A stretch of DNA of 50,843 nt from a virus (IMGVR_UViG_3300045988_175861); one strand, 5' to 3'. Positions 4,219 through 39,449 are shown, numbered from the stretch's first letter. A program made the numbers and translations. Notes: generated by a model from the letters alone, not told the origin.

Positions 4219-4219
4219 T

Positions 4220-6502: not shown

Positions 6503-6513
6503 TACATGATACT

Positions 6514-25255: not shown

Positions 25256-25538
25256 TAGTGAAAAACTGGTAGAGAGGAAACTAGTTGAAGGAGTTAAGCA
25301 AAACCACGGTATGTGTATAAAACTTACATCTATGATTGGGCTTCCGGATAGGCTATGCATATTTCATAGTGGTGTAGCACAATTCGTTGAATTAAAAACT
25401 ACTGGAGAAGAGCCAAGAAAAGTACAGCTGTATATACATAAAAAGCTTAGACAAATGGGTTTCAAAGTATTTGTAATAGATTCAGTTGCTGGCGTAAACC
25501 AATTTTTAGAACAGATAAATAATGTTAACAGAGAATAA
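25233..25538 (+). CDS. VRR-NUC domain nuclease
   Basis: 101 aa. GLPDRLCIFHSGVAQFVELKTTGEEPRKVQ matches the VRR-NUC G.PD....G...F.E.K..G..S..Q core. Confidence 0.8.
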   Translation: MKSQKKIDSEKLVERKLVEGVKQNHGMCIKLTSMIGLPDRLCIFHSGVAQFVELKTTGEEPRKVQLYIHKKLRQMGFKVFVIDSVAGVNQFLEQINNVNRE

Positions 25539-26961
25539 CTTGCATAATTATCAAAGAGCCGTAGTTGAGCATATAATAGATAATAAGTTTTGTGGAGTAT
25601 TCCTAGAAATGGGACTCGGTAAAACTGTATCAACTTTAACTGCGATTAACTATTTGATGAACGATTACTGCGAAATAAACAAATGCTTGGTTGTCGCACC
25701 AAAAAGAGTTGTGGAATCTGTTTGGGAAGAAGAGGCAGAAAATTGGGAACATCTTAGGCATTTGAGATTTTTAAAAGTAATTGGCAGTGAAAGACAAAGA
25801 GTAGCTGCACTCATGAAGCAAGCAGATATATATCTTATATCTAGAGATAATATTGCTTGGCTATGCGCATTTTATGGTGGCGCTAAACTTCCTTTTGAAA
25901 TGCTAGTAATAGATGAGCTCAGCTCATTCAAATCATATAAATCAATAAGGTTTAAAGCTTTGAAAGCATCAAGGCCATTCTTCAAAAGAGCAGTAGGGCT
26001 TACTGGCACACCAGCTCCTAATGGCTATATAGACTTGTGGGCCCAGATGTATCTAATTGATAGAGGTGAAAGATTAGAAAAAACAATAACGAGATACAGA
26101 GAAAGGTATTTCAGACCAGGTAAGACAAATGGGCATATAGTTTATAATTACAATCTTTTAAACGATTCTGAATACTTGATTAACAAAAAGATTGAAGATA
26201 TATGTATAAGTATGAAAGCGTCAGACTATATACAGATGCCGTTCAAGACTGACAATTATATAAAGCTAAGAATGCCAGATGCAGTTTATGAACAGTACAA
26301 ATCATTTGAAAAAGAAAAAGTATTAGAGCTGTTGAACCAAACAGAAACTGTAGAAGAGCAAGATGAAAATGGCAATTCTGTATTTGTAGAAAAGCCAGTT
26401 GAGATAAATGTAGTTAACGCAGCATCTCTATCTGGCAAATTGCTTCAGTTTGCAAATGGTGCTGTATATGATGATGACAGAATAGTTCATGAAGTGCATA
26501 AGATTAAGATAGATGCACTTGAAGAAATATTAGAAAGTAATGAAGGTAAATCTATACTTGTGGCATGGACATTTCAACATGATAGAGATAGGATAATGGA
26601 ATATCTTGCAAAATATGAACCAAGAGAGCTAAAAACAGGTAAGGATATAAAAGATTGGAATGAAGGTAAAATAAAATTTATGCTTGCTCACCCAGCATCA
26701 GCCGGGCACGGTCTTAACCTACAAACTGGAGGCCATATTATAGTTTGGTTTGGCCAAAATTGGAGTTTAGAATTATATCAGCAGTTTAATGCTAGGTTAT
26801 ATCGCCAAGGACAAAACGAGCATGTGATAATACATCATCTTATAATGAAAGATACAGAAGACGAATCAGTAATTAAGTCACTTCAAAATAAAGACAAAAA
26901 GCAAGAAGGTTTGATGCAAAGCATTAAAGCCAAGATAGAAAAGTATAAAAAGTTTATGTAG
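25522..26961 (+). CDS. SNF2-family helicase
   Basis: 479 aa with motif I EMGLGKT, motif II VIDELSSF, motif III GLTGTPAPN and motif VI QFNARLYRQGQ. Confidence 0.9.
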   Translation: MLTENNLHNYQRAVVEHIIDNKFCGVFLEMGLGKTVSTLTAINYLMNDYCEINKCLVVAPKRVVESVWEEEAENWEHLRHLRFLKVIGSERQRVAALMKQADIYLISRDNIAWLCAFYGGAKLPFEMLVIDELSSFKSYKSIRFKALKASRPFFKRAVGLTGTPAPNGYIDLWAQMYLIDRGERLEKTITRYRERYFRPGKTNGHIVYNYNLLNDSEYLINKKIEDICISMKASDYIQMPFKTDNYIKLRMPDAVYEQYKSFEKEKVLELLNQTETVEEQDENGNSVFVEKPVEINVVNAASLSGKLLQFANGAVYDDDRIVHEVHKIKIDALEEILESNEGKSILVAWTFQHDRDRIMEYLAKYEPRELKTGKDIKDWNEGKIKFMLAHPASAGHGLNLQTGGHIIVWFGQNWSLELYQQFNARLYRQGQNEHVIIHHLIMKDTEDESVIKSLQNKDKKQEGLMQSIKAKIEKYKKFM

Positions 26962-26962
26962 T

Positions 26963-27208
26963 ATGGTACTAGAAAGAAAACATATAAAAGCGATAAAGTT
27001 ATTAGTGATGGAGATTCTATATGCCAAACCTCATGGAGCGCTTGTTTCTCAAAAGGAATTATACTATATTGCGTATATTAACCTTGACTTCGTTCATTAC
27101 ACAGCAAAGTATCTTATAGAAAGACATATATATTCTATGATTAGAATGGCCGTTAGGAATAAAGCATACAGAAAATATACAAGGCTTGGCTACTATGAAC
27201 GCATTTAA
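26963..27208 (+). CDS. Hypothetical protein
   Basis: 81-aa basic ORF, the last gene before the modification operon promoter. Confidence 0.55.
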   Translation: MVLERKHIKAIKLLVMEILYAKPHGALVSQKELYYIAYINLDFVHYTAKYLIERHIYSMIRMAVRNKAYRKYTRLGYYERI

Positions 27209-27279
27209 AGATAAAGTTAATAATAATTAATTTAACAATTAAATAGTAGAAATTATTTTTATATACTAAAAATTTTTCT

Positions 27280-27287
27280 TATATTTG
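27280..27287 (+). promoter_or_regulatory. Bacteroidota-type -7 promoter box TATATTTG
   Basis: TTATATTTGCAATAAC lies 23 nt upstream of the carbamoyltransferase start, within a 100-nt AT-rich gap. Confidence 0.6.
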
Positions 27288-27309
27288 CAATAACAAAATT
27301 AAAATAATT

Positions 27310-29061
27310 ATGAAATACTTATTAATCACACTTGGTCATGGCTCATCAGCAATTTATATTGACGATGAAAAGAAAACAGTTATAGGGTACGAACAAGAAC
27401 GTCTATCTGGCATTAAGGCAGATAGCCAATTTCCTAAAGATGCGATAAATGAGATTATAAATAATGTTGGCTATATGGAAATGAAAGGCTGCAACATTTT
27501 TATTTCGCATTGGTTTAATCATCAAGATTCGCCAGCAGATATACTATATAACAAGTATATACAGGAGATTGATGCTATGAACCTAAGAGCATTATCTAGT
27601 AACATAATGCAAGTGAATAAATCATTTTCGCATCATGATGCACATGCGTATAGTGCATTGTCGTTCTTAAAATACAATAGGCCGTCATATAATAAGGAGA
27701 CTTATACGATTGTTGCAGATGGGTTTGGTAACAATGAAGAAGTATTATCGGTATATAAATCTGAAATAAATAATATAATGAGCCCTAAACTCGTATTAAG
27801 AGTTTCAGATTATAGAGCATCACTCGGTCTTATGTACCAATACGCTACTTCATTTTGTGGCATGAAAGAAAATCAAGATGAGTACAAGTTCCTAGGCTAC
27901 GAATCACATATAGATGAAGTGCTGTCGTTAGAAATGATTGATGCATTAGATTTTTATGTAGAAGATAATGTGAAAACACTGGAATCGTATGTACGCGGAG
28001 AAATGCTAAAAAAGTCTGCTGATAGAACAGTATGTAGAGAATGCAATCCAGATATGCTCATAGACACAAGTATGCTATTTGATGTAAGAATGCATTGGTA
28101 TGATATATTTAAAGAAGTGCTAAATATAGCAAACATAGATGTAAACGATACATTCAAAGTAAGATGTGTCATAGCTTACTTTATACAGCAATCAATAGAA
28201 ATATTCTTTGTGAGGCTTATAAATGAATTCAATATGCGAAATGTTTGCTTGGCTGGTGGATGCTTTTATAATGTTAAGCTTAACAACATAATATTAAGCA
28301 GAATAGCAGGTAACCTATGCATAATGCCATTGGCAGGCGACCAAGGAGCAGCAATTGGGATGTATACAGCATTTTCTAGAAAAATATTCAACTTTGGCAA
28401 TTTATGCTTTGGCAAACGACGTTTATACAATATTGAAAAATATGAAAGAAATAATGTAAAGGTTGTAAATTTAAAAACTCCTGGCATAATACAATCGATT
28501 GCAAGAGATATTTGTGATGGCAATATCGTAAATGTTGTGAGAGAAAACATGGAATTTGGTCCACGAGCTTTGTGTTCAACATCTAGTTTATTTCTGCCGA
28601 CTACTGAGAATGTTGCTAGAAACAATATGATGAATAAACGCAATGAGGTTATGCCATGCGCTCCTGTAATTTTATCAGGAAATGCGCATACTATGTTTTA
28701 TAGCAAAGATTTATCAAGAGTTATTGGTAGCTCAAAATATATGATTTGTACATTCGACTATATTAAGAAGTACTCTAAGCAGTATGGTGGCGTAATGCAT
28801 AAAAAGCCTTTAGAGAATGTATATACAGGAAGACCGCAAATCATTGAACCTGATTATATTGATACTGAAAATGATTTTATGTACAATTTGCTAACTGCTG
28901 TTGAAGATATATGTGATGCAAAATGCCTAGTTAATACAAGCTTCAATGCTCATGGCCGCCCAATTGTATTTGACACGATGGATATTATCCATAATTTCAA
29001 TTTTCAATGCGAGCATTCTCCATCTAACAAACAACCTATCTTATATATAATTAAAGGTTAA
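27310..29061 (+). CDS. NodU/CmcH/TobZ-family carbamoyltransferase
   Basis: 583 aa. N-domain motifs LGHGSSAIY, FSHHDAHAYSA and VADGFGNNE. C-domain motifs EFGPRALCSTS, KRNEVMPCAPV and VNTSFNAHGRPIV. All match the Carbam_trans_N and Carbam_trans_C signatures as I know them. Confidence 0.85.
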   Translation: MKYLLITLGHGSSAIYIDDEKKTVIGYEQERLSGIKADSQFPKDAINEIINNVGYMEMKGCNIFISHWFNHQDSPADILYNKYIQEIDAMNLRALSSNIMQVNKSFSHHDAHAYSALSFLKYNRPSYNKETYTIVADGFGNNEEVLSVYKSEINNIMSPKLVLRVSDYRASLGLMYQYATSFCGMKENQDEYKFLGYESHIDEVLSLEMIDALDFYVEDNVKTLESYVRGEMLKKSADRTVCRECNPDMLIDTSMLFDVRMHWYDIFKEVLNIANIDVNDTFKVRCVIAYFIQQSIEIFFVRLINEFNMRNVCLAGGCFYNVKLNNIILSRIAGNLCIMPLAGDQGAAIGMYTAFSRKIFNFGNLCFGKRRLYNIEKYERNNVKVVNLKTPGIIQSIARDICDGNIVNVVRENMEFGPRALCSTSSLFLPTTENVARNNMMNKRNEVMPCAPVILSGNAHTMFYSKDLSRVIGSSKYMICTFDYIKKYSKQYGGVMHKKPLENVYTGRPQIIEPDYIDTENDFMYNLLTAVEDICDAKCLVNTSFNAHGRPIVFDTMDIIHNFNFQCEHSPSNKQPILYIIKG

Positions 29062-29065
29062 TGCT

Positions 29066-29710
29066 ATGAAAAATACGTACTTCGTAGTTTTCTCTGGTGG
29101 TTGTTACAGTGGGAAAACAACTACCATGCAGAAATTCACAAAAGCTCTTGAGAATAAAGGAGTTAAAGTAAAAGTTTTAGATGAGATTGTAAGGAAGCAC
29201 AAGATACAATCTATTGATAAACTGAGAAAAAACCCAGTAGCTTATCTTGATTTTCAAAACAGAATAATAAATGAGAAAATAGAAGCTGAGTTATCATGCC
29301 TCAATGAAAATAGAAAACAAGTTGTAGTTTGTGATAGAGCAATTACTGATTCACTCTTCTATTTGCTATTCTATGTTGACAAAGCAAATTTGAATGAAGA
29401 GCAAATGGCACTCTACGCAAATTTGTATGAAAGTATAGACCAATATGCGAAAAGAGCATTCAGCGAGATATATGATTTGTTAATAGAATTTAAGCCAATC
29501 AATAAAAATGAAACTTATGATTCATACAGGCCAAAAAATATTAGCATAAATAAATATATTGAGTATAAGATGATAAACACTTTGAATGATGCTTACATGA
29601 ACACTTCTACAGACTTACAGGCTTTATATCTCGATTTGAATAAAGGCTCTTACGATGATTTACTTGAAGTAATAACGAATAATATTGCAAAACGATATGA
29701 CAAAGATTAA
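29066..29710 (+). CDS. P-loop nucleotide kinase-like protein (dNMP kinase or DNA 5-hydroxymethyl-pyrimidine kinase candidate)
   Basis: 214 aa. Walker A FSGGCYSGKTT, then VVVCDRAITDSLFY, which resembles the DR...D..Y lid region of dNK/AAA_28-type kinases. Confidence 0.6.
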   Translation: MKNTYFVVFSGGCYSGKTTTMQKFTKALENKGVKVKVLDEIVRKHKIQSIDKLRKNPVAYLDFQNRIINEKIEAELSCLNENRKQVVVCDRAITDSLFYLLFYVDKANLNEEQMALYANLYESIDQYAKRAFSEIYDLLIEFKPINKNETYDSYRPKNISINKYIEYKMINTLNDAYMNTSTDLQALYLDLNKGSYDDLLEVITNNIAKRYDKD

Positions 29711-30518
29711 ACATTTTAACAAGTTGAATGAATATATAACAAGCAATACTTGGAGAGTGTTCTTCAACCAGTTCTTAGACCAAATTCCGTACTCTGAATT
29801 AAGAGATAAGGAATATCTGGAAGTTATTGGAGCTACTTACAGAATACTGCCTGAAAACTATTTAATGAGTAATAACTCATCTTTAATCAATCCTAAAAAG
29901 TTATATGCATTGTTCAAATGGTATAAAAAAGGAGATAGCAAAGACACATCCATAGTACAATATTTTCCTGAATATGAGCATCGTGTTGATTTTTTCCATA
30001 GCGACTTCAATTCTAACTACGGAATATACGCATATAAGAAAAAAGGAATTGTAAGATGCGCGCATGAGCTGATTAAAAACAGAAATTCAAGACAAGCTTG
30101 CTTTATGATAAACAATAATGAAGCAATGTCTGAAGATTCTATTGATAAACTATGCACTAATGCTATAATGTTCTTCATAAGAGACAACATGCTCAACATG
30201 TGCATACAGATGCGCTCATCTAATATACTCACAATGCTTCCATACGACATATTTATGTTCTGTGTGTTCTATTATCAGGTTTTAGAAATGGTATCGTCAA
30301 AATACCATGACTTAGATACAGGTGTTATAACTATGCAAGTTGGCTCTCTTCACATGTACAAAAAAGATATGGAAGAAATAAAAAGTACAAAGCCTTTATT
30401 AAAAATTGGAATTGATGGCTCATATTTATATGGTGGTATGATACCTTATAGATACGCGCATACGAAGATTACTCCAGCGATTGAAAATATTCTCAAACAA
30501 CTAGCTGAAAATGGATGA
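29685..30518 (+). CDS. Thymidylate-synthase-fold pyrimidine C5 transferase, paralogue 1 (dCMP hydroxymethylase/methylase candidate)
   Basis: 277 aa. SNYGIYAY (YGxQW region), NSRQACFMINN (SRR...WNP region), catalytic-Cys segment KLCTNAIMFF, QMRSSNILTMLPYDI (aligns to QRSCDVFLGLPFNI) and GSLHMYKKD. Asp replaces the Asn177-equivalent residue. Confidence 0.75.
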   Translation: MQNDMTKIKHFNKLNEYITSNTWRVFFNQFLDQIPYSELRDKEYLEVIGATYRILPENYLMSNNSSLINPKKLYALFKWYKKGDSKDTSIVQYFPEYEHRVDFFHSDFNSNYGIYAYKKKGIVRCAHELIKNRNSRQACFMINNNEAMSEDSIDKLCTNAIMFFIRDNMLNMCIQMRSSNILTMLPYDIFMFCVFYYQVLEMVSSKYHDLDTGVITMQVGSLHMYKKDMEEIKSTKPLLKIGIDGSYLYGGMIPYRYAHTKITPAIENILKQLAENG

Positions 30519-30771
30519 TAATACCGATTTGCTGCTAAAATATGCCAAACAGAATAATGATTTTCTGAGGGCTATATACTCTCTTACAAAGCAAAATAAT
30601 GAATTGTTGAAATATATAAAGCAAGAGATAGATAAAGAATTTAGCTTAGAAAATCTCATAAAAGTGGAAAGCGTTATTTTTGTAGCAAATATAGTTGCTA
30701 ATATATTTTCAAACATTTTATATCATGATTTATTAGAAGACAAAAGTAAGTATAACAAAAAGCAAAAATGA
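30511..30771 (+). CDS. Hypothetical protein
   Basis: 86-aa ORF that overlaps both neighbours by a few nt. Confidence 0.55.
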   Translation: MDDNTDLLLKYAKQNNDFLRAIYSLTKQNNELLKYIKQEIDKEFSLENLIKVESVIFVANIVANIFSNILYHDLLEDKSKYNKKQK

Positions 30772-31265
30772 TTATGAAATTCTTAAAAACAAGAAATGTG
30801 AAAAGCCCAGTAAGAGGCACTGATAAGTCAGCAGGAATTGATTTTTTCATTCCAGAAGATTTTGAAATAATGAGATTATTTCCTGGTGACGATGTGCTCA
30901 TTCCGTCTGGAATTAAAGCCAATTTGCCAGAAGGTTTCATGCTGATGGCCGCAGACAAATCAGGTGTTGTTACATCAGAAAATGCTGTACTTAAAAGTGG
31001 AAGAGAGCCTAAAAAGGGCGCATTCAATTCAAATTTGATAATTGGCGCAAAGATTGTTGATGAAGACTATCAAGGAGAAATACACATACATTTAATAAAT
31101 GTTGGTAAGCATGAAGTTATGCTAAAACCTGGTATGAAGATTGCACAATTTATCTTAGTGCCAGTTGCATATGCTGCTTTAGAAGAAGTCGATAGCGAAA
31201 CTGAATTGTTCGATGCTAAGACAGCAAGAGCAGATGGTGGTTTTGGCTCTACAGATAAACGATAA
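30768..31265 (+). CDS. dUTPase-family (trimeric) nucleotide pyrophosphatase
   Basis: 165 aa with all five motifs: SAGIDFF, DKSGV, AKIVDEDYQGEI, MKIAQF and RADGGFGSTD. It has about 14 extra residues between motifs 2 and 3 relative to E. coli Dut as I recall that sequence. Confidence 0.85.
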   Translation: MIMKFLKTRNVKSPVRGTDKSAGIDFFIPEDFEIMRLFPGDDVLIPSGIKANLPEGFMLMAADKSGVVTSENAVLKSGREPKKGAFNSNLIIGAKIVDEDYQGEIHIHLINVGKHEVMLKPGMKIAQFILVPVAYAALEEVDSETELFDAKTARADGGFGSTDKR

Positions 31266-31278
31266 CACATAAGGTTTT

Positions 31279-31345
31279 ATTCTAGAGAGGCTTTTTATTA
31301 GGTCTAATATATTTCATTCTCAATTTGATTTAGCCTCTCTAGAAT
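31279..31345. promoter_or_regulatory. 14-bp perfect inverted repeat with 39-nt spacer
   Basis: ATTCTAGAGAGGCT (31279-31292) pairs with AGCCTCTCTAGAAT (31332-31345). No flanking T-tract. It lies between the dUTPase-family gene and the next ORF. Confidence 0.6.
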
Positions 31346-31375
31346 AGCCTAAGATAACTTAACTTATTTAAACAA

Positions 31376-31705
31376 ATGCATATGAAAACTATAATCGTAT
31401 GTTTAATGCTACTACTTGCTAATAGCTCATTTGCTCAAATATATATTGAAGATATTGATGAGAAAATAGAGCAATTGGTACAACAGAATAGAATACTGCT
31501 ACAAAAAGCTGATAGCCTTAATAAGCAATTAAAAATCATAATTGCAAGCAGACAAGAAGGTGATGCAATGATAAAAGCAAGACAGAATGAGATAAATTCT
31601 TTACTAGGAATAGTAAAAGTCAATATCGATATGATGTATGCTTTGCAAGATAGAAAAAGAATACTTCAACAGATAGAAAGCAATGGATGCAATAGTAATA
31701 AATAA
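31376..31705 (+). CDS. Secreted coiled-coil protein
   Basis: 109 aa. Signal-peptide-like N terminus MHMKTIIVCLMLLLANSSFAQ, then heptad-like sequence. Confidence 0.6.
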   Translation: MHMKTIIVCLMLLLANSSFAQIYIEDIDEKIEQLVQQNRILLQKADSLNKQLKIIIASRQEGDAMIKARQNEINSLLGIVKVNIDMMYALQDRKRILQQIESNGCNSNK

Positions 31706-31910
31706 TGTAATGCATGAATTATTGCTTAATAAAGATTTTATGCCTGGAAATGTAGCAATAAAAATGTGTGATATGTGTTCATTAAAAAGTTATTGTTGGA
31801 ACTTAAGCATTCCTGATATATGCGATACTTTGATAATGCAAGATGAGCATAAAAATGATTACAGGATGTTTAGAGAAATTGGCAAATTGCAAGGTTATTT
31901 CTTAGAATAA
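31683..31910 (+). CDS. Hypothetical Cys-rich protein
   Basis: 75-aa ORF with CDMCSLKSYCWNLSIPDIC. Confidence 0.5.
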   Translation: MDAIVINNVMHELLLNKDFMPGNVAIKMCDMCSLKSYCWNLSIPDICDTLIMQDEHKNDYRMFREIGKLQGYFLE

Positions 31911-31927
31911 TTAAACATAAAAAATGT

Positions 31928-32356
31928 ATGGCAAGAAAAACAGTGAATATTGACCCTCTTATAAATTCAGATTTATTCCTTAAGTTTGCAGGTCATTTTG
32001 CAGATAAGTTTAAAAAGCAAAATGGGTTTGGCAAATGGCTTGAAGAGTATAAGAGAATGGACAAACAAGGATTGTTCGAACCAGAGAAACTAAGGCAACA
32101 ATATATTCAAGTTATTAACAATAATTATAGACTTGGATTTGTACATAAACAAGCGATTGTGTATATTTGTGTACAAGCACTTGATGCCGTAAAATTTGGC
32201 ATAGAAACTAAGAATTATAGCATTTATGTAATATCAGGTGAAATAGCTATTGATGACAATGGATTGGAACTTAAAAATCTTAAGCATGATGACGCAATAA
32301 CTATTTGCAAATCTATGAATGAAGAAGCAGAAGAAGAATTATTTTATGTAAAGTAG
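31928..32356 (+). CDS. Hypothetical protein
   Basis: 142-aa ORF that starts with ATGGCAA. Confidence 0.65.
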   Translation: MARKTVNIDPLINSDLFLKFAGHFADKFKKQNGFGKWLEEYKRMDKQGLFEPEKLRQQYIQVINNNYRLGFVHKQAIVYICVQALDAVKFGIETKNYSIYVISGEIAIDDNGLELKNLKHDDAITICKSMNEEAEEELFYVK

Positions 32357-32361
32357 CAACT

Positions 32362-33060
32362 ATGATAGACAATACTATTAAAAACTTAATATTCTTAGAT
32401 GCAACTGATGCGTTTGAATATTTGTATGAATACATAATGAAATATGGAAAAAATACAAATATAGGGACTAAAGCTATATATAACGCTGGGTTTTATATAG
32501 CACAACCGCAAAGAAGACTTATAGAAACTAGATGGAGGAAATTCAGTATAACCTATGCAGAAAGAGAATGGCAATGGTATTTATCGCAAAATAGAAGTGT
32601 CAAAGACATAAAGAAATATGCCAAGATTTGGGATAAAATGCATGGAGGAGACAATATAGTCAATTCAAACTATGGTTGGCAATGGAACCGCAATGCACAG
32701 CTTGGAAAATGTATAGAACAATTAAAGGCAAACAAAAATACACGCCAAGCTTGGCTTACAATATTTGATGGTAAAGAAAAAGATGATTATGAATTTGACA
32801 CACCATGTACATTGTCTATAGGCTTTGATATACTACAAAATGAAAATGGCGATGATTTTCTCAATATGTGTGTAAACATGCGGTCTAATGATTTGATTTA
32901 TGGTTTTTGCAATGACCAATATTGTTTTTCTATGTTACAAGAATACGTTGCAAAAAAACTAGGTATCCGTGTAGGAACATATTATCATTTTGTTCATGAT
33001 TTACATATCTACGAAAAGCATTATAACTTAAAAGAAAAATATTATGAAAAAACTAGGTAA
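32362..33060 (+). CDS. Thymidylate-synthase-fold pyrimidine C5 transferase, paralogue 2
   Basis: 232 aa. NYGWQWN, NTRQAWLTIFD, catalytic-Cys segment DTPCTLSIGF, NMRSNDLIYGFCNDQY (aligns to QRSCDVFLGLPFNIAS) and DLHIYEKHY. Asp again sits at the Asn177-equivalent position. Confidence 0.8.
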   Translation: MIDNTIKNLIFLDATDAFEYLYEYIMKYGKNTNIGTKAIYNAGFYIAQPQRRLIETRWRKFSITYAEREWQWYLSQNRSVKDIKKYAKIWDKMHGGDNIVNSNYGWQWNRNAQLGKCIEQLKANKNTRQAWLTIFDGKEKDDYEFDTPCTLSIGFDILQNENGDDFLNMCVNMRSNDLIYGFCNDQYCFSMLQEYVAKKLGIRVGTYYHFVHDLHIYEKHYNLKEKYYEKTR

Positions 33061-33229
33061 AATTTTATGGGATTGTTTATGCTTTTTATATTTTTTCGTC
33101 TATGCATTAGGCTGGTTACTTCATAAAGTAGCAAGATTCCTATTAGCTATTAGCTATTATATTATGTTACAAAAAAGACCAGCAAATGATATTATGGAAA
33201 GCTTATTCAAATTCAGTAAATGGTTTTAA
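33044..33229 (+). CDS. Small membrane protein
   Basis: 61 aa with two hydrophobic segments (ILWDCLCFLYFFVYALGWLL, FLLAISYYIML). Confidence 0.5.
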   Translation: MKKLGKILWDCLCFLYFFVYALGWLLHKVARFLLAISYYIMLQKRPANDIMESLFKFSKWF

Positions 33230-33243
33230 AGTAGATTACGTGT

Positions 33244-34149
33244 ATGGCAATTACTAATAAAGAAGCAGCAAAATTCCTTCATGAAATAGAAGATTCAGAT
33301 TCTGAATATGACTCGCAGATGAAGGAAGAGATACGCAAGATACAAATTGAAGAAATGCAGGATGACCTTCTGCCAGAAGAAATGATGTCTGACAGGGCTT
33401 GGGGTTTTACTGTAAAGGCAGAAAGAGACGACAGCGGAGAGATGGTACGCGACGAATCTGGCAGACTTGTAATTACTAAAAGACCTGTCTTGTATGAAGA
33501 GAAAAAGAAAGAATGGGAAAATTACCTCATTAAAAAGAAGCAATTTGCAGAAAAGAACCAAGTAGCGAGTGAAAAGAGGCGTCTGCAAATCAAAAGAGAC
33601 GCGCTTGAAAATAACCTGAAAGACCTGAACAAAAGCCTGACGACTGAAGACAAAAAGATAATAATCAGTATAATGTCGGCTAAGTACCAGAACCTCATGG
33701 ATAAATCTCTCAATTACATTAATAATAGAATTGAGACACTGCTGAAGCCATATATTCCGCATATTGTGAAAAGCTGTTGGGCACAATATCCTGATATATT
33801 TAAAATAAATGACGGGTTCATGTATGAAGCTAGTAAAGAATATGGCAAATCTCTTGCTATATGGGTTACTCCTAACATTCCATTTTTCTTTTCAAAAGGA
33901 ACCGAAATGGATATGCTAAGAGAAACTAGTAGCGAATTTCTTTTCTACATTGATAAAGCAGTTGTTGCATATTATGAGCATAGAGACAAGTTAATTGATA
34001 TGCAATCCAAATATGCATTCAGGCTTACTAAGATTGATACATTTTTAAAGTTAGTTGAAAAGCATCCATTCTGGTATGACAAGTATGTCAAATGGCAAGA
34101 GCAGCAAAAAGTGATTAAAGAAATTGAAGATAAAAAACTTTCCTGTTAA
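33244..34149 (+). CDS. Hypothetical protein (last gene of the modification operon)
   Basis: 301-aa ORF with an acidic N-terminal half. A strong hairpin terminator follows. Confidence 0.7.
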   Translation: MAITNKEAAKFLHEIEDSDSEYDSQMKEEIRKIQIEEMQDDLLPEEMMSDRAWGFTVKAERDDSGEMVRDESGRLVITKRPVLYEEKKKEWENYLIKKKQFAEKNQVASEKRRLQIKRDALENNLKDLNKSLTTEDKKIIISIMSAKYQNLMDKSLNYINNRIETLLKPYIPHIVKSCWAQYPDIFKINDGFMYEASKEYGKSLAIWVTPNIPFFFSKGTEMDMLRETSSEFLFYIDKAVVAYYEHRDKLIDMQSKYAFRLTKIDTFLKLVEKHPFWYDKYVKWQEQQKVIKEIEDKKLSC

Positions 34150-34173: not shown

Positions 34174-34212
34174 AAAGCCGACGGTCTGTGAAGATAGTCG
34201 GCTTTGCTTTTT
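34174..34212. terminator. Bidirectional hairpin terminator with GGTCTGTGAAGATA loop
   Basis: 9-bp stem AAAGCCGAC/GTCGGCTTT, 14-nt loop, T-tract on the + strand and A-tract upstream. It lies between convergent genes. Confidence 0.75.
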
Positions 34213-34281
34213 GCATTAAAATCGTTCCAGGAGAAAAAGCCATTTTGGCTCTGGGAAGTACGGTCAGGGGGCCTGGGATGA

Positions 34282-34728
34282 TTATTTCTTTACTGCTTTC
34301 CAAAGATGGTAAATACTGCCTTTCTCTGTTTGAATATACTGTTTTCCATAATCATTGTAAAGAATTTTGCACACCTGTGGCTCTAATGGTGGTTTACAAG
34401 TGTTTGCATATCTTACTGTGCATTCACTGCTTATTCCATCCCAATTTATCTGCAAATACCAATTATTGAACAAATCAATATATAGATTGTATTGAAATTC
34501 ATCTTCTTCATATGGGATGAATAGAGCTTCTATGAGACCATTTCTTTCATCCAAATAGCACCAATCGTCATCTATATGAAAGCCATTCTGGAAGCGCCTA
34601 TTTATATCATAGACAAACTTCATATTTGCTTCATCAATCATAGGTTCATCATCTTTCATGTAGAAAAATGCATCATTTGGAATTATGACCCGCTCTGCAT
34701 GGTCATAATTCATAGAATAATTTGCCAT
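34282..34728 (-). CDS. Hypothetical acidic protein (leftward early module)
   Basis: 148-aa ORF that starts with ATGGCAA, with a TATATTTA box about 90 nt upstream on the minus strand. Preferred over the overlapping + strand ORFs. Confidence 0.65.
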   Translation of the reverse strand: MANYSMNYDHAERVIIPNDAFFYMKDDEPMIDEANMKFVYDINRRFQNGFHIDDDWCYLDERNGLIEALFIPYEEDEFQYNLYIDLFNNWYLQINWDGISSECTVRYANTCKPPLEPQVCKILYNDYGKQYIQTEKGSIYHLWKAVKK

Positions 34729-34817
34729 AATTTTTTACTGTCTATCTGTGTATTATTCATCTAGTAATATGCAATATTTTTTACTGCAGCCTAGACTACA
34801 GGCTACATTTTAACATG

Positions 34818-34825
34818 TAAATATA
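34818..34825 (-). promoter_or_regulatory. -7-like promoter box (TATATTTA on the minus strand)
   Basis: The reverse complement of TAAATATA lies upstream of the 34728 start. A TTTTCTGTTAAT element sits at 34852. Confidence 0.4.
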
Positions 34826-35073
34826 GAAAAAATATTTGAATAACCAAAGAATTTTCTGTTAATTATTTGTTAAATATTATAAAGCCACATTCAATATAAA
34901 AATCAGGCATTGCTAATATCTTATCTAGATATTAACCAGCATACTAGATTTAGCCTAGATTTAATTTAAATACAAGAAACGATAAAACCCATTGGAAATT
35001 ATAAAAGTTTCTAGAAATAGCCCAAAATGACCTAAATTGAGTAGAAATATTATGTTTAATATAAATGGAGGCA

Positions 35074-35113
35074 CAAAAATATAGGCAGGCTATCTTCACA
35101 GACTGCCTGCCTA
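35074..35113 (-). terminator. Hairpin terminator (minus strand) with AGTCTGTGAAGATA loop
   Basis: 9-bp stem TAGGCAGGC/GCCTGCCTA with a 14-nt loop. The minus-strand transcript continues into TATATTTTT. It lies directly downstream of the 35167..36249 gene. Confidence 0.75.
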
Positions 35114-35166
35114 CTGGTTTTCACCTAAACTTAATTATGAATTATTTAAACAGAATGGCTGGTATA

Positions 35167-36249
35167 TTATTCAGCTGAATTTTCAGCATTTTCTGCAGCT
35201 TTGAGTTCACTGTCAAGCTTTTCTGCAAGTTCTTTCTTAGCTTCTTCAAGCTCTTCAGTCAATTTTGCCTTCTTTGCATTCAGCTTCTCAATCTGAGCAT
35301 CAATTTGTGAAATTCTCTTTTCGGCCAATTCGATACTCTTTTCAGGAGTTAATTCCTCTTTGTTTTTTCTGTTATGCAGTCTTTCCATATATTTGGCATT
35401 CAGCTTTGCACCTTCTTCATCAAGCTCTTCTGCCAATCTCAAATCTTTATTGTCTGACACTTTGTGAGAATATTTAACAGGGAGACCTAATGCTTTCTCA
35501 TCTTCTGTTTGGTCAATTGCAATTCTGAACAGAATTCTCTTGCCTCTCTTATCTGCTACTAGTGATACAACTCTACCAGTTTCAGTCTCTGCATTCTCAA
35601 TCTTTTCTCCAATTGCTCCAGTCTTCTCATAAGCAATTGTTTTGCCGACATGGACTGAATTCTCCTCAATTGCCTTGTTAATATCTTCTTCAGCCCAAGG
35701 TTCTTTTGGCTGTGAATTTTCAGATGACCTCTTAGTGCCTCTTGCTTTCTTCGGCAATTCAACAACTTCATCTTCAATCTTAATGAGCTGAGAATCTACA
35801 GCTTTCACAATTCTCCGGCCATCATCAAGCTTAATGGCATACATTACTTTGTTTGACCTCTTTTCCTCAATGATTGAAACAACTATTCCTGGTTCCCAGA
35901 TTGCAGTATTGAAAGGCACAACTTGGCATCTATGGCCAATTGTAGTTTCTTTCAATTTTGCTGCAAGCTCAGAGCGCTCTTGGTCAGTCATCTTCTTTTT
36001 TGTTTCCTTTGAGCCACCTTTGCCTTCATAAGAGGGGTTTATGCCACCATTTTCCTCAGCTGCTTTGATTGCTGCCTCTTCTTCCGGAGTAAGTGGAGCT
36101 TCTTCAGCTTCAGCTACCTCTTTGGCTTTTTGCTGTCTAGCTTCAAGGATTGCTGTGATTTGGTCTTTCACTTCTTGAGTAGTTTCTTCACTGTTGAACA
36201 TTTCATTCAATTTCTTTGAACTCATCTGATTTAAATTCTTTGTTGCCAT
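35167..36249 (-). CDS. Hypothetical highly charged protein with an internal duplication and C-terminal coiled coil
   Basis: 360 aa, monocistronic with its own promoter module and terminator. GIVVSIIEEKRSNKVMYAIKLDD and GRVVSLVADKRGKRILFRIAIDQ are two copies of a small beta-rich module. Confidence 0.75.
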   Translation of the reverse strand: MATKNLNQMSSKKLNEMFNSEETTQEVKDQITAILEARQQKAKEVAEAEEAPLTPEEEAAIKAAEENGGINPSYEGKGGSKETKKKMTDQERSELAAKLKETTIGHRCQVVPFNTAIWEPGIVVSIIEEKRSNKVMYAIKLDDGRRIVKAVDSQLIKIEDEVVELPKKARGTKRSSENSQPKEPWAEEDINKAIEENSVHVGKTIAYEKTGAIGEKIENAETETGRVVSLVADKRGKRILFRIAIDQTEDEKALGLPVKYSHKVSDNKDLRLAEELDEEGAKLNAKYMERLHNRKNKEELTPEKSIELAEKRISQIDAQIEKLNAKKAKLTEELEEAKKELAEKLDSELKAAENAENSAE

Positions 36250-36256
36250 AATTTTT

Positions 36257-36356
36257 AGTTTTTTAATTGGTTATTATTAGCTTTAATTTGTTATTGCAAA
36301 TACGATTGTTATTTTTTAATCTTGAAAGTATTTTAGAACTTTTTTCTGTTAAATAA
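36257..36356 (-). promoter_or_regulatory. Leftward promoter module A
   Basis: On the + strand: AGTTTTTTAATTG (36257), the complement of the -7 box CGTATTTG (36297-36304), TAATCTTGAAAGT (36317) and TTTTCTGTTAAATAA (36342). The order and 20/45-nt spacings match module B. Confidence 0.65.
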
Positions 36357-36399
36357 TGTTTATGATACCTTCAACTGTTTTTCTTTAATTATCACATTG

Positions 36400-36407
36400 C
36401 AAATATA
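36400..36407 (-). promoter_or_regulatory. -7 promoter box TATATTTG (minus strand)
   Basis: Reverse complement of CAAATATA, within the 36250-36496 intergenic gap. Confidence 0.45.
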
Positions 36408-36496
36408 CATGTTTCCTGATTGTATTTTGTTAATTGCAAGTTAAAATTTTCTGGTTGTCTGTTAAATTTTGTTTTAGCATTTGCTGTTATTTCAAA

Positions 36497-36748
36497 TTAC
36501 AACTCAGCCACTTTTTCTAAATTATAACATGCGTTTTCTAAGACTCTATGCATCTTGGACCTCATTTCAGCTTCACTGATAACATTTCTTTTGAATATTA
36601 TTATGAACTGGCAAGGACTAACTTCTATTATAACTGATGAGCCTGAAAGCTCAGTCTGTAAGTTATCTACAATTATGCTATAATCACTGTTTCTAAGTGG
36701 TGCAATTTCAAATCTATAGACTACACAATCTCCATTCTCTTGTTTCAT
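36497..36748 (-). CDS. Hypothetical protein
   Basis: 83-aa ORF, the last gene of the four- or five-gene leftward operon. Confidence 0.6.
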   Translation of the reverse strand: MKQENGDCVVYRFEIAPLRNSDYSIIVDNLQTELSGSSVIIEVSPCQFIIIFKRNVISEAEMRSKMHRVLENACYNLEKVAEL

Positions 36749-36771
36749 AATTCTCAGTGTTTTTTAAATGA

Positions 36772-37077
36772 CTACAATAAATTAACTTCTCCTTTTGTTA
36801 TATCAAAAATCTGTATACCACTCAAAATATGAAACTTACCATACTTTGCAAGTCCTTTATAATTAACTATTTTCTGTGCATAATATCTATTCTGAGCTTT
36901 GCTGTAATTTATTTGATAAATTGAAGAATACCCACAAACATATAATTTTTCTCTTTCAATAATTTCACAAGAAATTCTGTTAAGTTCTATATTTCCAGCT
37001 TTGCATTCTATTGCTGTGTCTTCATACATAACATGAAAAGGGACATCTTCTGGTCTTTTGTAAATAGCTGTTTTCAT
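36772..37077 (-). CDS. Hypothetical protein
   Basis: 101-aa ORF in the leftward operon. Confidence 0.6.
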   Translation of the reverse strand: MKTAIYKRPEDVPFHVMYEDTAIECKAGNIELNRISCEIIEREKLYVCGYSSIYQINYSKAQNRYYAQKIVNYKGLAKYGKFHILSGIQIFDITKGEVNLL

Positions 37078-37089
37078 AATTATTAGTTT

Positions 37090-37185
37090 TTAAATTCCAA
37101 ACAAATGATAACTTATGATACTTATAAGGAGCATAGCCAATCCTATGGCTATGCATATATCTCCTTCTTTTTTATTGCTCTCCAT
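37090..37185 (-). CDS. Possible small membrane peptide (31 aa)
   Basis: Hand translation of the minus strand gives MESNKKEGDICIAIGLAMLLISIISYHLFGI. It fills the gap between two leftward genes. Confidence 0.4.
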   Translation of the reverse strand: MESNKKEGDICIAIGLAMLLISIISYHLFGI

Positions 37186-37199
37186 GACTACCTGAATTA

Positions 37200-37472
37200 T
37201 TACAGCTTATATTCTATTACTTTGTGGGCAGTTCTTGACTCAAATGCATTATGAGCAAACCCAAGTGTAGATGCCAACCTTACTGCTTTTTTCAATTGTA
37301 TCATTATTTCAAATGCTGCATCTTGAGCATTGTGTTCAGCGATTGAAAAATCTCTGTTGTTGCTACATTCATTCTGTGTCTTTTCAGCATTCTCAATATC
37401 AGCTAAGCATTTATTGATTTGCTTCATTGTTGCCTTAATCTCTTTTCTGTAATCTTCTGTCAAAGTCTTCAT
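37200..37472 (-). CDS. Hypothetical protein
   Basis: 90-aa helical ORF, the first gene downstream of promoter module B. Confidence 0.65.
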   Translation of the reverse strand: MKTLTEDYRKEIKATMKQINKCLADIENAEKTQNECSNNRDFSIAEHNAQDAAFEIMIQLKKAVRLASTLGFAHNAFESRTAHKVIEYKL

Positions 37473-37479
37473 AACTGTA

Positions 37480-37577
37480 AGTTTTTTAATTGTTAGTATT
37501 CTTTTGTTTTGGTATTACAAATATACAGGATAATTTCTAATCTTGAAAGTTTTTATAGTTAATTTTCTGTTAAATAA
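37480..37577 (-). promoter_or_regulatory. Leftward promoter module B
   Basis: On the + strand: AGTTTTTTAATTG (37480), the complement of TATATTTG (37518-37525), TAATCTTGAAAGT (37538) and TTTTCTGTTAAATAA (37563). Confidence 0.7.
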
Positions 37578-37579
37578 CC

Positions 37580-37594
37580 ATGCCATTGTGGCAT
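37580..37594. repeat. Palindrome ATGCCA-TTG-TGGCAT
   Basis: Perfect 6-bp arms. It is the first member of the TGGCA/TGCCA motif family that fills 37580-38320. Confidence 0.7.
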
Positions 37595-37783
37595 TAAGCA
37601 TTAATTCTTATTTCCGCATAATCATGCCAGAATGTCATATTGAAACTATCTCAAATCAGTTATCATTTAACGGCTTTATAGTGCTGTTATGAATGCAATA
37701 TTGGTGTGATATCAAATCAAAATTGTAATGGCATCATGCACACAGGTGATAATGACAAATTGGCATGTTGCATACTTGTAGGG

Positions 37784-37802
37784 TGACAGGATGACAGGAT
37801 GA
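37784..37802. repeat. 8-bp tandem repeat TGACAGGA x2.4
   Basis: TGACAGGATGACAGGATGA read directly from the sequence. Confidence 0.8.
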
Positions 37803-38006
37803 AATTTGTTGATGATTGTTAACAATTTTGCCTTGGTGCCAGATTTAAAGTGAATTTGAATGCCTGAATGCCATCATCATTTTTCGGACTAGGAAATTAT
37901 GGTAAAATAACTGCTTATTGGCTAATTGCCATCATAGCAATTTTGAAGTAACATCAAACTTACAAGCTAATAACTATTATTATATTATTGCAGCAATTTC
38001 AAATAT

Positions 38007-38080
38007 GGCATAATGGCATCATGGCAATTAGCTCAATGGCATAATGGCATCATGGCAATTAGCTCAATGGAATAATGGTA
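38007..38080. repeat. 31-bp tandem repeat x2.4
   Basis: The unit GGCATAATGGCATCATGGCAATTAGCTCAAT is perfect at 38007-38037 and 38038-38068, followed by a degenerate partial third copy. Confidence 0.9.
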
Positions 38081-38124
38081 ACAAGAATAGTAATAAATTA
38101 TTACAAGTAAGGCATTTTGACATT

Positions 38125-38160
38125 AGGCCCCTTTGTGCCTGAGAGCCGGGGCCTTTATTA
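38125..38160 (+). terminator. GC-rich hairpin, terminator-like
   Basis: 7-bp stem AGGCCCC/GGGGCCT with a 16-nt loop, followed by TTATTA. The T-tract is weak and it is isolated in an ORF-free region. Confidence 0.4.
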
Positions 38161-38200
38161 TAAATAATATGATGATGAGCTCTTTGGCAATCAGACTTTT

Positions 38201-38264
38201 TTAAGTTTTTAGGCTTTTTATTAAGTTTTTTAGGTTTTTAAGTTTTTAGGCTTTTTATTAAGTT
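38201..38264. repeat. 27-bp direct repeat (37-bp period), T-rich
   Basis: TTAAGTTTTTAGGCTTTTTATTAAGTT occurs at 38201-38227 and 38238-38264, with TTTTAGGTTT between the copies. Confidence 0.9.
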
Positions 38265-38640
38265 ATTTGATTTAATATTTTCATAAGCAGGCCCATAGAC
38301 TAAATGGCAAAATGGCATTTTTGCTTCCAAAAAAATTTTAACTATATTTCTAAGTGTGAAAAATGTTTAATCAATTTTGAGCGCTAGATTTTAATAGCTT
38401 TAAATTGACATTTATAAGTCATCGTTTTTAGGCTAATTTCTTTTCCAGAATAAAATAAAGCATATCCAGACTGACTTTTAAGGCTAATTATAATATTTAA
38501 AGTCAACGCGTGCGTACAAAGGCATCGCTTTACAAACCAATATACCGTTTATCGGTCTGGTAAAAAGCCACAATCTAAAATTATCCCATATTTGGCATTT
38601 ATTTACTATCATAAAAAGTCAAGAAACAAGAATTTTTCTT

Positions 38641-38733
38641 GTAAACAATGATAAACAATCGTAAACAATGTATCGTTTATCGATAAGTGATTGATTTTCA
38701 ATAGAATAAGCTATAATAAACAATATAAACAAT
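38641..38733. repeat. Composite ATAAACAAT iteron element, copy 2
   Basis: Boxes at 38641, 38651 and 38661 (exact 10-bp period), an inverted variant box, then GCTATAATAAACAATATAAACAATAA (boxes at 38716 and 38725). The architecture matches 17086-17179. Confidence 0.8.
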
Positions 38734-38804
38734 AATTATTCTAATAAAAGGGGTTTAATTATATAAAAAGTATATATCGTATAAATAGGGGGTATATAAC
38801 GAAA

Positions 38805-38850
38805 ACGCGCAGGCACGCGTGCGCGTGTACGCACACACATGGGCACGCAC
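38805..38850. repeat. GC-rich alternating pyrimidine-purine tract (Z-DNA-prone)
   Basis: 38814-38841 (CACGCGTGCGCGTGTACGCACACACATG) is a perfect 28-nt Py-Pu alternation. Shorter alternating runs flank it, and it contains the palindrome GCACGCGTGC. Confidence 0.85.
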
Positions 38851-38865
38851 CTTTTTAGCGATTTT

Positions 38866-39300
38866 ATTGTTTACATTGTTTATCGACGTAAAATTGGACT
38901 GTAAACGACTGATTTTTAATCACTTACAAATAAACAATATTGATAAACAATGATTTTTTTCTGACAATTTAATATGTTTATTTTGTTTATACTGGAATTT
39001 TTCTTGTTCCACTTGTCAAAATTTATCAGTGTAAATTTTACAAAGTGACACTTTGTCATTGGACAAAAGTGGTAAAATGGAAAATATACAATTTCGTTTA
39101 TTCCATTTTACTATTAGCCAGCCTAGAAACTATGTGTCGTTCTACCACTTTGCTGTCAAAACTTTTCTTGAACACTCACAACTGGCCCGGACTTCCTAGT
39201 TTGCACTTTTTATTGTTTATCTTGTTTATTCTATTATAACTGACTGAAAACTAGCAAGTTAGCGATAAACAATGCTTGTTTACTAGAAATATTTATTGTT
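38866..39300. repeat. Dispersed ATAAACAAT boxes, both orientations (about 11 copies)
   Basis: Examples: ATTGTTTACATTGTTTAT (38866 onward), AAATAAACAATATTGATAAACAATG (38929 onward), TATTGTTTATCTTGTTTAT (39208 onward), GATAAACAATGCTTGTTTAC (39263 onward). Confidence 0.7.
39040..39056. promoter_or_regulatory. Perfect 17-bp palindrome ACAAAGTG-A-CACTTTGT
   Basis: 8-bp arms read directly. It is nested within a second imperfect inverted pair (CCACTTGTC / GACAAAAGTGG) and followed by a 10-bp-stem hairpin at 39072-39111. Confidence 0.6.
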
Positions 39301-39388
39301 CCTACAAAATTTTCTCTTTTTCTTACCACAGCCAATCATCATTATACTTTTTTAACTTAAAAGACTTTTTTAATTCGCAGCCTTTATT

Positions 39389-39396
39389 CATATTTG
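39389..39396 (+). promoter_or_regulatory. -7-like promoter box CATATTTG upstream of terS
   Basis: TTCATATTTGCATAAC lies 54 nt upstream of the 39450 start. It is one mismatch from TAnnTTTG but has the same TATTTGCA core as the other boxes. Confidence 0.5.
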
Positions 39397-39449
39397 CATA
39401 ACAAGCTAATAATGAGAATTTATATAAACATAACTTTTAGAACTGTATT

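Follow-up and report, generated by a model that had tools for sequence, protein, structure and literature searches.

A predicted cytosine-modification module in a relative of Bacteroides phages combines a canonical-type dCMP hydroxymethylase with a thymidylate synthase-fold paralogue of altered folate site

We analyzed a 50,843-nt stretch of viral DNA (IMGVR_UViG_3300045988_175861, hereafter the window), a phage genome of ~51 kb that looks nearly complete. Its replication genes are T7-like (exonuclease, gp2.5-type single-stranded DNA-binding protein, PolA, primase-helicase and SNF2 helicase), and lysis cassette, terminase, portal and capsid genes were also identified. Annotated relatives are limited to six sewage phages of Bacteroides fragilis (BF486P2 and its kin), which show 68-70% nucleotide identity across a modification module located at 27.3-33.1 kb. 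Every gene of this module lies on the + strand, mostly overlapping or abutting its neighbors, and two of them encode the thymidylate synthase (TS)-fold enzymes studied here, P1 and P2. The two have the nucleotide site and the catalytic cysteine in common and differ in the folate site, which is intact in P2 and rebuilt in P1. The features of the module are as follows:

27310..29061, + strand: O-carbamoyltransferase (CT) of the NodU/TobZ type, a predicted carbamoylase of hydroxylated cytosine (Pfam Carbam_trans_N, 1.3e-20; Carbam_trans_C, 6.5e-28; PHROG 1601, 9e-70)
29066..29710, + strand: P-loop nucleotide kinase (KIN), probably a dNMP kinase for modified dCMP(s) (Pfam AAA_28, 2.7e-10; PHROG 2107 'thymidylate kinase'; weak match to the TIGR00041 dTMP kinase)
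29697..30518, + strand: P1, divergent TS-fold enzyme (Pfam PF00303, PHROG 160, family alignment, AlphaFold2 model)
30511..30771, + strand: small conserved open reading frame (ORF) of 86 aa between P1 and the dUTPase gene (61-97% conserved in a subset of related loci)
30768..31265, + strand: DUT, trimeric dUTPase family (Pfam dUTPase, 9.1e-18; NCBIfam dUTP diphosphatase, 1.9e-25, under its cut-off)
31928..32356, + strand: conserved 142-aa protein immediately 5' of P2 (same position in many related loci)
32362..33060, + strand: P2, most likely a canonical folate-type dCMP hydroxymethylase, that is, a 5-hydroxymethyl-dCMP (5hmdCMP) synthase (Pfam TS, residue signature, model)

The KIN and P1 genes overlap by 14 nt. 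An earlier reading of the window from the sequence alone (the sequence-only reading) had placed the start of P1 at the TTG at 29685; the gene itself stood, but its most likely start is the ATG at 29697, which gives 273 aa as in the database proteins. That reading had not used the locus context, namely the CT and nucleotide kinase genes immediately upstream, which explains most of the locus.

Both proteins matched PF00303 above the cut-off, P1 at 8.7e-8 (32.1 bits against a threshold of 24.3) and P2 at 2.7e-24, and both matched PHROG 160. The best solved relative of each was the T4 dCMP hydroxymethylase (dCH), at 4.2e-9 for P1 and 1.3e-16 for P2. All sequence strings quoted in the sequence-only reading were present in the program translations; P1 reads IDKLCTNAIMFFIRDNMLNMCIQMRSSNILTMLPYDIFMF, while P2 reads DTPCTLSIGF and then NMCVNMRSNDLIYGFCNDQYCF. 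Residue positions of P1 and P2 are given here in E. coli ThyA numbering. In the HMMER alignments, 'LPYD' of P1 and 'FCND' of P2 fell on 'FRND' of T4, that is, on Asp179, which corresponds to Asn177 of E. coli. The family alignments agreed with this placement, Asp177 being conserved among the homologues of P1 (97/98) and of P2 (39/40), and the claim that two TS-fold paralogues carry Asp at the Asn177 position was thereby borne out. The catalytic Cys, likewise claimed for both, was kept in every homologue aligned (98/98 for P1; 40/40 for P2), as was Arg166 (98/98; 40/40). Of the other two phosphate-binding residues besides Arg166, Ser167 was found in 97/98 and Arg126 in 96/98 of the P1 homologues, and both in 40/40 of the P2 homologues. 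At the position of Leu143 both proteins have an acidic residue, an invariant Asp three residues ahead of the Cys (D150 in the P1 alignment and D146 in the P2 alignment). AlphaFold2 models, a check that the sequence-only reading had called for, reached a predicted local distance difference test (pLDDT) score of 88.1 for P1 and 88.6 for P2 and matched MilA, T4 dCH, AfhB and TS, with a Foldseek probability of 1.00 for both models against MilA, T4 dCH and TS. Asp177 together with the acidic residue at 143 in each protein also supports the proposal that both enzymes are likely cytosine-directed. Only the P1 and P2 ORFs of the window matched TS profiles, so that no Asn177-type TS was present, and the ThyX motif RHRxxS was not found in the window; a third TS or a ThyX in the window was thus ruled out, in agreement with the earlier statement that no canonical dTMP synthase is encoded. 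P1 and P2 are 30% identical across 126 residues and are therefore old paralogues rather than products of a recent duplication, as had been suggested.

P2 has the signature Glu58, Trp80, Tyr94, Arg126, Asp143, Cys146, Arg166, Ser167, Asp169, Gly173, Asp177, His207 and Tyr209, and Glu58, Trp80, Asp169 and Gly173 were each found in 40/40 sequences of the P2 family alignment. These four residues, among them the general acid/base Glu58 (Glu60 in T4) and Asp169, which binds the pterin, are the ones expected of a folate-type dCMP hydroxymethylase; P2 has them all whereas P1 has none. The folate chemistry of TS and T4 dCH needs Glu58 and Asp169. P2 matched the CMP hydroxymethylase MilA in sequence (1.1e-15) about as it did T4 gp42 (1.3e-16), and the P2 model superposed on MilA with a TM-score of 0.82. 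It has all the catalytic and folate-site residues of T4 gp42 and MilA, plus a truncated C-terminus, but represents a distinct gut-phage lineage that is 23-26% identical to T4 dCH and MilA in structure-based alignments. The P2 family is very large, with at least 8000 matches and 2,680 member sequences in one cluster alone, of which family 40 homologues were aligned. The ratio of nonsynonymous to synonymous substitution (dN/dS) of P2 against close relatives was 0.064-0.102. Judged by these residues, P2 is most likely a member of the folate-dependent dCMP hydroxymethylase family, of the ordinary kind, and P1 is not.

P1 has the fold, nucleotide site and Cys of T4 gp42 and MilA in common but lacks Glu58 (T4 Glu60) and Asp169. 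Its states at the informative positions are Leu58, Tyr80, Asp143, Asn169, Met173 and Asp177. The P1 family is small (98 clusters, all from phage contigs of ~50 kb, with ~45% identity among ~100 sequences), and the changes run through it: Glu58 was replaced by Met, Leu, Ile or Val in 98/98, Trp80 by Tyr in 98/98, Asp169 by Asn in 97/98 and Gly173 by Leu or Met in 97/98. Every nucleotide-site residue and the nucleophile were retained, with Cys146, Thr147, Arg166 and Tyr94 in 98/98, Ser167, His207 and Asp177 in 97/98 and Arg126 in 96/98. The dN/dS of P1 against close relatives was 0.058-0.069, that of CT 0.09-0.13. P1 is under strong purifying selection and is not decaying; its dN/dS of 0.06-0.07 and the invariant active-site residues reject a decaying pseudogene. 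In the GenBank records OP172667-OP172672 (BF486P2, BF486P3, BF494P1, BF503P1, BF503P2 and BF503P4), both TS-fold genes are named 'deoxycytidylate 5-hydroxymethyltransferase', and 'hypothetical protein' is the label given to CT and the kinase. For the P1 homologue the public name is probably wrong, and CT has been overlooked.

The residues that replace the folate site in P1 resemble those of a recently described group of enzymes. The TS homologues RB69 gp48 and DLP3 gp80 make 5-hydroxy-dCMP (5hodCMP) with flavin and O2, and Asp169Asn was reported as diagnostic of 5hodCMP synthases, as 9/9 diverse Asp169Asn homologues tested gave the 5-hydroxycytosine (5hoC) deoxynucleoside, 5hodC (Lee et al., PMC13326640). 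The published sequence rule (Asp169Asn accompanied by Cys146, Asp177 and acidic 143; PMC13326640) fits P1 (MRSSN...LPYD, DKLC) and does not fit P2, which has Asp169. In our alignment RB69 gp48 and its homologues in Serratia 92A1, Acj9, phiM9 and P9VFCI have Phe58, Ala80 (non-Trp) and Val173; RB69 gp48 is the experimentally validated member of this set. Serratia phage 92A1 has been reported to contain arabinosyl-5hoC. The phiM9 sequence MRSQNMISVWPYD aligned with MRSSNILTMLPYD of P1. P1 also agrees with a further cofactor-site pattern, derived here and not published, of a hydrophobic residue at 58, a residue other than Trp at 80 and a bulky residue at 173. Positions 58, 80, 169 and 173 were tightly coupled across a set of ~150 representative relatives, of which 97 had Glu/Trp/Asp/Gly and 19 had non-Glu/non-Trp/Asn/non-Gly. 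P1 therefore has the entire cofactor-site signature of the hydroxylases and not only one residue of it. The P1 model matched the crystal structures of AfhB (HY126) with FAD and dCMP bound (9iqc and 9iqu). P1 thus has the TS fold, Cys, Asp177, acidic 143 and Asp169Asn of the 5hodCMP synthases RB69 gp48, DLP3 gp80 and AfhB (PMC13326640), and a cognate dNMP kinase is needed by or linked to those enzymes as it is to P1. The partners differ, since the 5hodCMP synthases go with glycosyltransferases whereas P1 goes with a carbamoyltransferase and a constant canonical hydroxymethylase.

The second line of evidence came from gene linkage. A module of CT and an Asp177 TS homologue has been linked to cytosine modification, and the validated CT turns 5-hydroxymethylcytosine (5hmC) into 5-carbamoyloxymethyl-cytosine on single-stranded DNA and on 5hmdCTP but is inactive on 5hmdUTP (Yang et al., MetaGPA, PMC8670742). 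The window CT is homologous to this enzyme over its full length (34% identity, E 8e-96), and the window shares with the MetaGPA module a TobZ/NodU-type CT adjoining an Asp177 TS homologue. The loci nearest the validated CT hold one canonical TS homologue; in the window, by contrast, CT adjoins the remodelled P1, and the canonical enzyme is encoded 1.8 kb downstream. A scan of IMG/VR with the CT family gave 79 loci, and CT adjoined an Asp177 TS homologue in the window and ~75 viral loci. In ~40 more distant viral loci, CT stands beside one TS homologue of canonical signature with Asp177. CT, KIN and P1 were contiguous in all the loci with a P1-type gene; besides those of the Bacteroides-phage group, these include a 168-kb contig that is unrelated (L016) and one from Logan (L101). 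A canonical hydroxymethylase co-occurred with 17/17 distinct P1-type genes that had at least 1.8 kb of downstream DNA; two further P1-type genes sit at contig ends and are outside this count. The partner hydroxymethylase in L016 is of a different, T4-like lineage and its gene overlaps P1. KIN and P1 are naturally fused in one database protein (P0047), and the KIN homologue in contig L102 matched Pfam dNK. In the syntenic relatives L074, L039 and L049/L077, CT is accompanied by a P2-type enzyme and P1 is missing. P1 thus supplements the CT/P2 pathway, and it moves with CT and KIN.

Several other arrangements were seen. The cultured Xanthomonas phage Xp15 (AY986977.1; presumably the IMG/VR contig IMGVR_UViG_638277118_000001, our locus L069) appears to have CT beside a canonical Asp177 TS homologue and is predicted to hold 5-carbamoyloxymethyl-cytosine. 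A separate KIN-TS-CT clade in IMG/VR (L053, L055, L057, L059 and L064) has a single TS homologue with Gln58 and Glu169 that keeps Trp80, Gly173 and Asp177, and no second TS gene was present within 8 kb of these cassettes. When window positions 25522-34149 were compared with the closest relatives (L002/L003), CT, KIN, P1 and P2 were 81-86% identical, the neighboring helicase 97-98% and a 301-aa protein 91-92%, with similar dS. Either protein evolution is faster in the modification module or the module is swapped between phages.

Our preferred explanation, which we put forward tentatively and with somewhat less than even confidence, is that P2 acts as a hydroxymethylase and supplies CT, and that P1 is hydroxylase-like and independent of folate. 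The locus would then be a cytosine-hypermodification module in which the two TS-fold enzymes have different jobs. P2 would make 5hmdCMP with methylene-tetrahydrofolate, KIN together with host kinases would raise it to the triphosphate, and CT would convert 5hmC to 5-carbamoyloxymethyl-cytosine, a reaction shown biochemically for its homologue. P1 would bind a dCMP-type nucleotide, its Cys attacking C6. Since the folate pocket of P1 is rebuilt as in RB69 gp48 and AfhB, it would most likely give 5-hydroxy-dCMP, or else the product of another folate-independent reaction at C5, and would pass it to the adjacent and sometimes fused kinase. Here we infer the cofactor and product of P1 and the hydroxyl that CT uses; the fold, residue states, conservation, purifying selection, linkage and co-occurrence with a canonical hydroxymethylase are observations.

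We hold this explanation only tentatively because of the use of O2 set against an anaerobic host, the presence of Asp or His at 169 in some relatives, the lack of a glycosyltransferase in the window, and a CT that may prefer either 5hmC or 5hoC. The points that weigh against a hydroxylase function of P1 are these. The known 5hodCMP synthases draw their oxygen from O2, as determined by 18O2 labelling (PMC13326640), and the sole cultured relatives of the window phage infect the anaerobe B. fragilis. An anaerobic host could explain the constant presence of an O2-independent hydroxymethylase or could equally mean that P1 has another function. Pfam scans of 30 window ORFs turned up neither a glycosyltransferase, which usually accompanies 5hoC, nor other transferases. 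The 34% identity of the window CT to the validated 5hmC enzyme is low, and 5hoC was not among the substrates tried with that enzyme. The motifs of P1 are dCH-like (NSNYG, DKLCTN and SLHxY) and not the FYGPR, EYPCT and SAHI of the validated hydroxylases. Its likeness to the flavin-dependent enzymes, from which its function is judged, lies in a few sequence positions. In the wider P1 clade, MRSSN was found in 106/116 proteins, and position 169 is Asp or His in ~10/116, still without Glu58 and Gly173; the cultured phages BF486P2, BF503P1 and BF503P4 read MRSSD (Asp169), and a cultured phage with Asn169 in its P1 was not found. Asn169 is therefore not strictly required for the function of the clade. 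Lastly, the neighbor-joining tree and the structural search, described below, do not place P1 with the hydroxylases.

The members of the wider P1-like clade with Asp or His at 169 and without Glu58 and Gly173 include loci L017, L018, L032-L034 and L101 and proteins P0231-P0237. Their gene order is CT-KIN-P1-DUT-TS, with the canonical partner present, and position 169 is thus not fixed in the lineage. The TS homologue of a Clostridium perfringens phage (Clostridium phage CPAS-15, MN417334.1, L105) was considered as an example of Asp169Asn in a phage of an anaerobe and was dropped as uninformative, as it has Asp169 and His173. The phage has a kinase, dUTPase, glycosyltransferase and this TS homologue in a row; the active site of the homologue is another unusual one in a phage of an anaerobe (Leu58, Arg143, Ser147, Asp169, His173 and Asp177).

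The neighbor-joining tree placed P1 beside the CT-linked hydroxymethylases and away from RB69/P0351, with weak deep support. With hhalign, P1, P2 and the hydroxylase set were roughly equidistant, and the best viral match of the P1 model in a Foldseek search of BFVD was the CT-linked enzyme of Xp15. Membership of P1 in the RB69/AfhB clade was thus supported by neither the tree, hhalign nor Foldseek, and a signature common to P1 and that clade would therefore be convergent. P1 seems to have reached its hydroxylase-like state independently, from a CT-linked hydroxymethylase ancestor. In the simplest history, a CT-KIN-hydroxymethylase cassette would have entered a genome that had, or later acquired, another hydroxymethylase, and the copy in the cassette, then free to change, may have converged on a hydroxylase-type pocket.

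The alternative that survives best, although we regard it as doubtful, is that P1 acts after P2 in a folate-independent and Cys-dependent reaction, expelling the hydroxyl or carbamate on the C5-methylene of 5hmdCMP or its carbamoylated form and installing a new nucleophile or hydride. The Cys, added at C6, would regenerate the exocyclic methylene intermediate and lead to a further cytosine derivative. The constant company of P1-type genes agrees with such a role, both the canonical hydroxymethylase in 17/17 and the neighboring CT and KIN, as does the existence of relatives with CT and P2 but no P1 (L074, L039 and L049), in which P1 appears as an add-on. The invariant nucleotide site and Cys, combined with a folate site filled with bulky residues, fit as well; the toggle between Asn, Asp and His at 169 is easier to reconcile with a cofactor pocket that is out of use than with a strict contact to flavin; and the reaction would do without O2, in keeping with an anaerobic host. 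We know of no TS-fold enzyme for such a reaction, however, and the set of replacements at 58, 80, 169 and 173 is that of the 5hodCMP-synthase clades. The KIN-P1 fusion suggests a monophosphate product awaiting phosphorylation, which would be equally true of a primary product made from dCMP.

It is also conceivable, but improbable in our view, that P1 is catalytically dead or regulatory and serves as a nucleotide-binding scaffold for the kinase and CT or as a heterodimer partner of P2, a heteromer having been raised in the sequence-only reading. P1 retains Arg126 (96/98), the residue that a TS-fold active site takes from the other subunit (Arg126'), and has lost Glu58 and Asp169, without which TS and dCH do not function. 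Obligate co-occurrence with the canonical enzyme, the existence of the kinase fusion and the faster evolution of P1 point the same way; across the phage group, P1 proteins are 45-55% identical to that of the window and P2 proteins 63-74%. Such a role sits poorly with the invariance of Cys146, Thr147, Tyr94, His207 and Asp177 over ~100 sequences at ~45% identity and with a dN/dS as low as that of P2, and the nucleophile is usually the first loss in pseudoenzymes. The T4-like lineage of the partner in L016 argues against a co-evolved heterodimer interface.

The proposal of the sequence-only reading, that both are folate-dependent one-carbon transferases on cytosine nucleotides (a hydroxymethylase and an XP12-type methylase, or enzymes for dCMP versus CMP or dCTP), has Asp177, the catalytic Cys, T4 dCH as best solved match and the GenBank naming of both Bacteroides-phage homologues on its side but is very unlikely, as Glu58, Asp169, Trp80 and Gly173 are missing throughout the P1 family, both proteins have Asp in place of Leu143, and ~97/150 dCH-like representatives keep Glu/Trp/Asp/Gly jointly, so that the state of P1 is not ordinary drift. 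A hydrophobic residue at 143 goes with methyl products (PMC13326640). Asp177 sends the XP12-type dCMP methylase and TS Asn177Asp mutants to dCMP, as in P1 and P2, but enzymes that form methyl products are hydrophobic at 143 and retain the site of hydride transfer from folate, whereas P1 and P2 have Asp143 and P1 lacks the folate site, including Glu58 and Asp169. A methylase was therefore rejected for both.

Around the two enzymes, DUT neighbors TS genes in most related loci, and three small ORFs separate it from P2, the last of which encodes the 142-aa protein. Neither this protein nor the neighbor at 33244-34149 had a match in Pfam, PHROG, NCBIfam, PDB or PADLOC, and the 86-aa ORF (30511-30771) had no family match in Pfam, PHROG and further scans. 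The ORF at 31376-31705 (+ strand, 109 aa) has a signal-peptide-like N-terminus, MHMKTIIVCLMLLLANSSFAQ, the rest being coiled-coil-like, and is kept only in the closest relatives. Elsewhere in the window, positions 34200-39450 form the sole block with minus-strand genes, where the GC/AT skew is inverted, and 35167-36249 encodes an acidic 360-aa protein rich in Lys and Glu without a real family match. Three very large ORFs at 634-10689 (+ strand; 1194, 760 and 1391 aa) had no Pfam match and presumably encode virion or tail proteins. The Bacteroidetes-type promoter motif was not enriched in the window (3 found against 1.5 expected).

The CT module (PMC8670742) and the dCMP hydroxymethylase family of P2 were known already. 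What is new in P1 is that, to judge by its residues, it conforms to the published rule for 5hodCMP synthases while apparently lacking common descent with them, and that it has other partners and probably another host physiology. How the switch from folate to flavin arose was named as an open question by the authors of PMC13326640. If P1 is a hydroxylase, it would represent an independent origin of this switch in the TS superfamily and show which residues matter; the phage would also be the first, as far as the literature examined shows, in which a hydroxymethylase works alongside a hydroxylase, and the carbamoyltransferase would have a possible second substrate. If it is not, the Asp169Asn rule predicts too much, and phages of anaerobes have a new TS-fold chemistry yet to be discovered. 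We consider it rather unlikely, though worth stating, that the CT-KIN-P1 triad is a mobile cassette for a new base (5-carbamoyloxy-cytosine from the 5hoC of P1, or the product of a C5 reaction independent of both O2 and folate) beside the 5hmC bases of the P2 route; if true, the abundant Bacteroidales phages of the gut would each have two hypermodified cytosines of different chemistry in one genome. As the size of a single P2 cluster indicates, these phages are very common in metagenomes, and their DNA chemistry therefore bears on the evasion of restriction and CRISPR in the gut and on sequencing bias.

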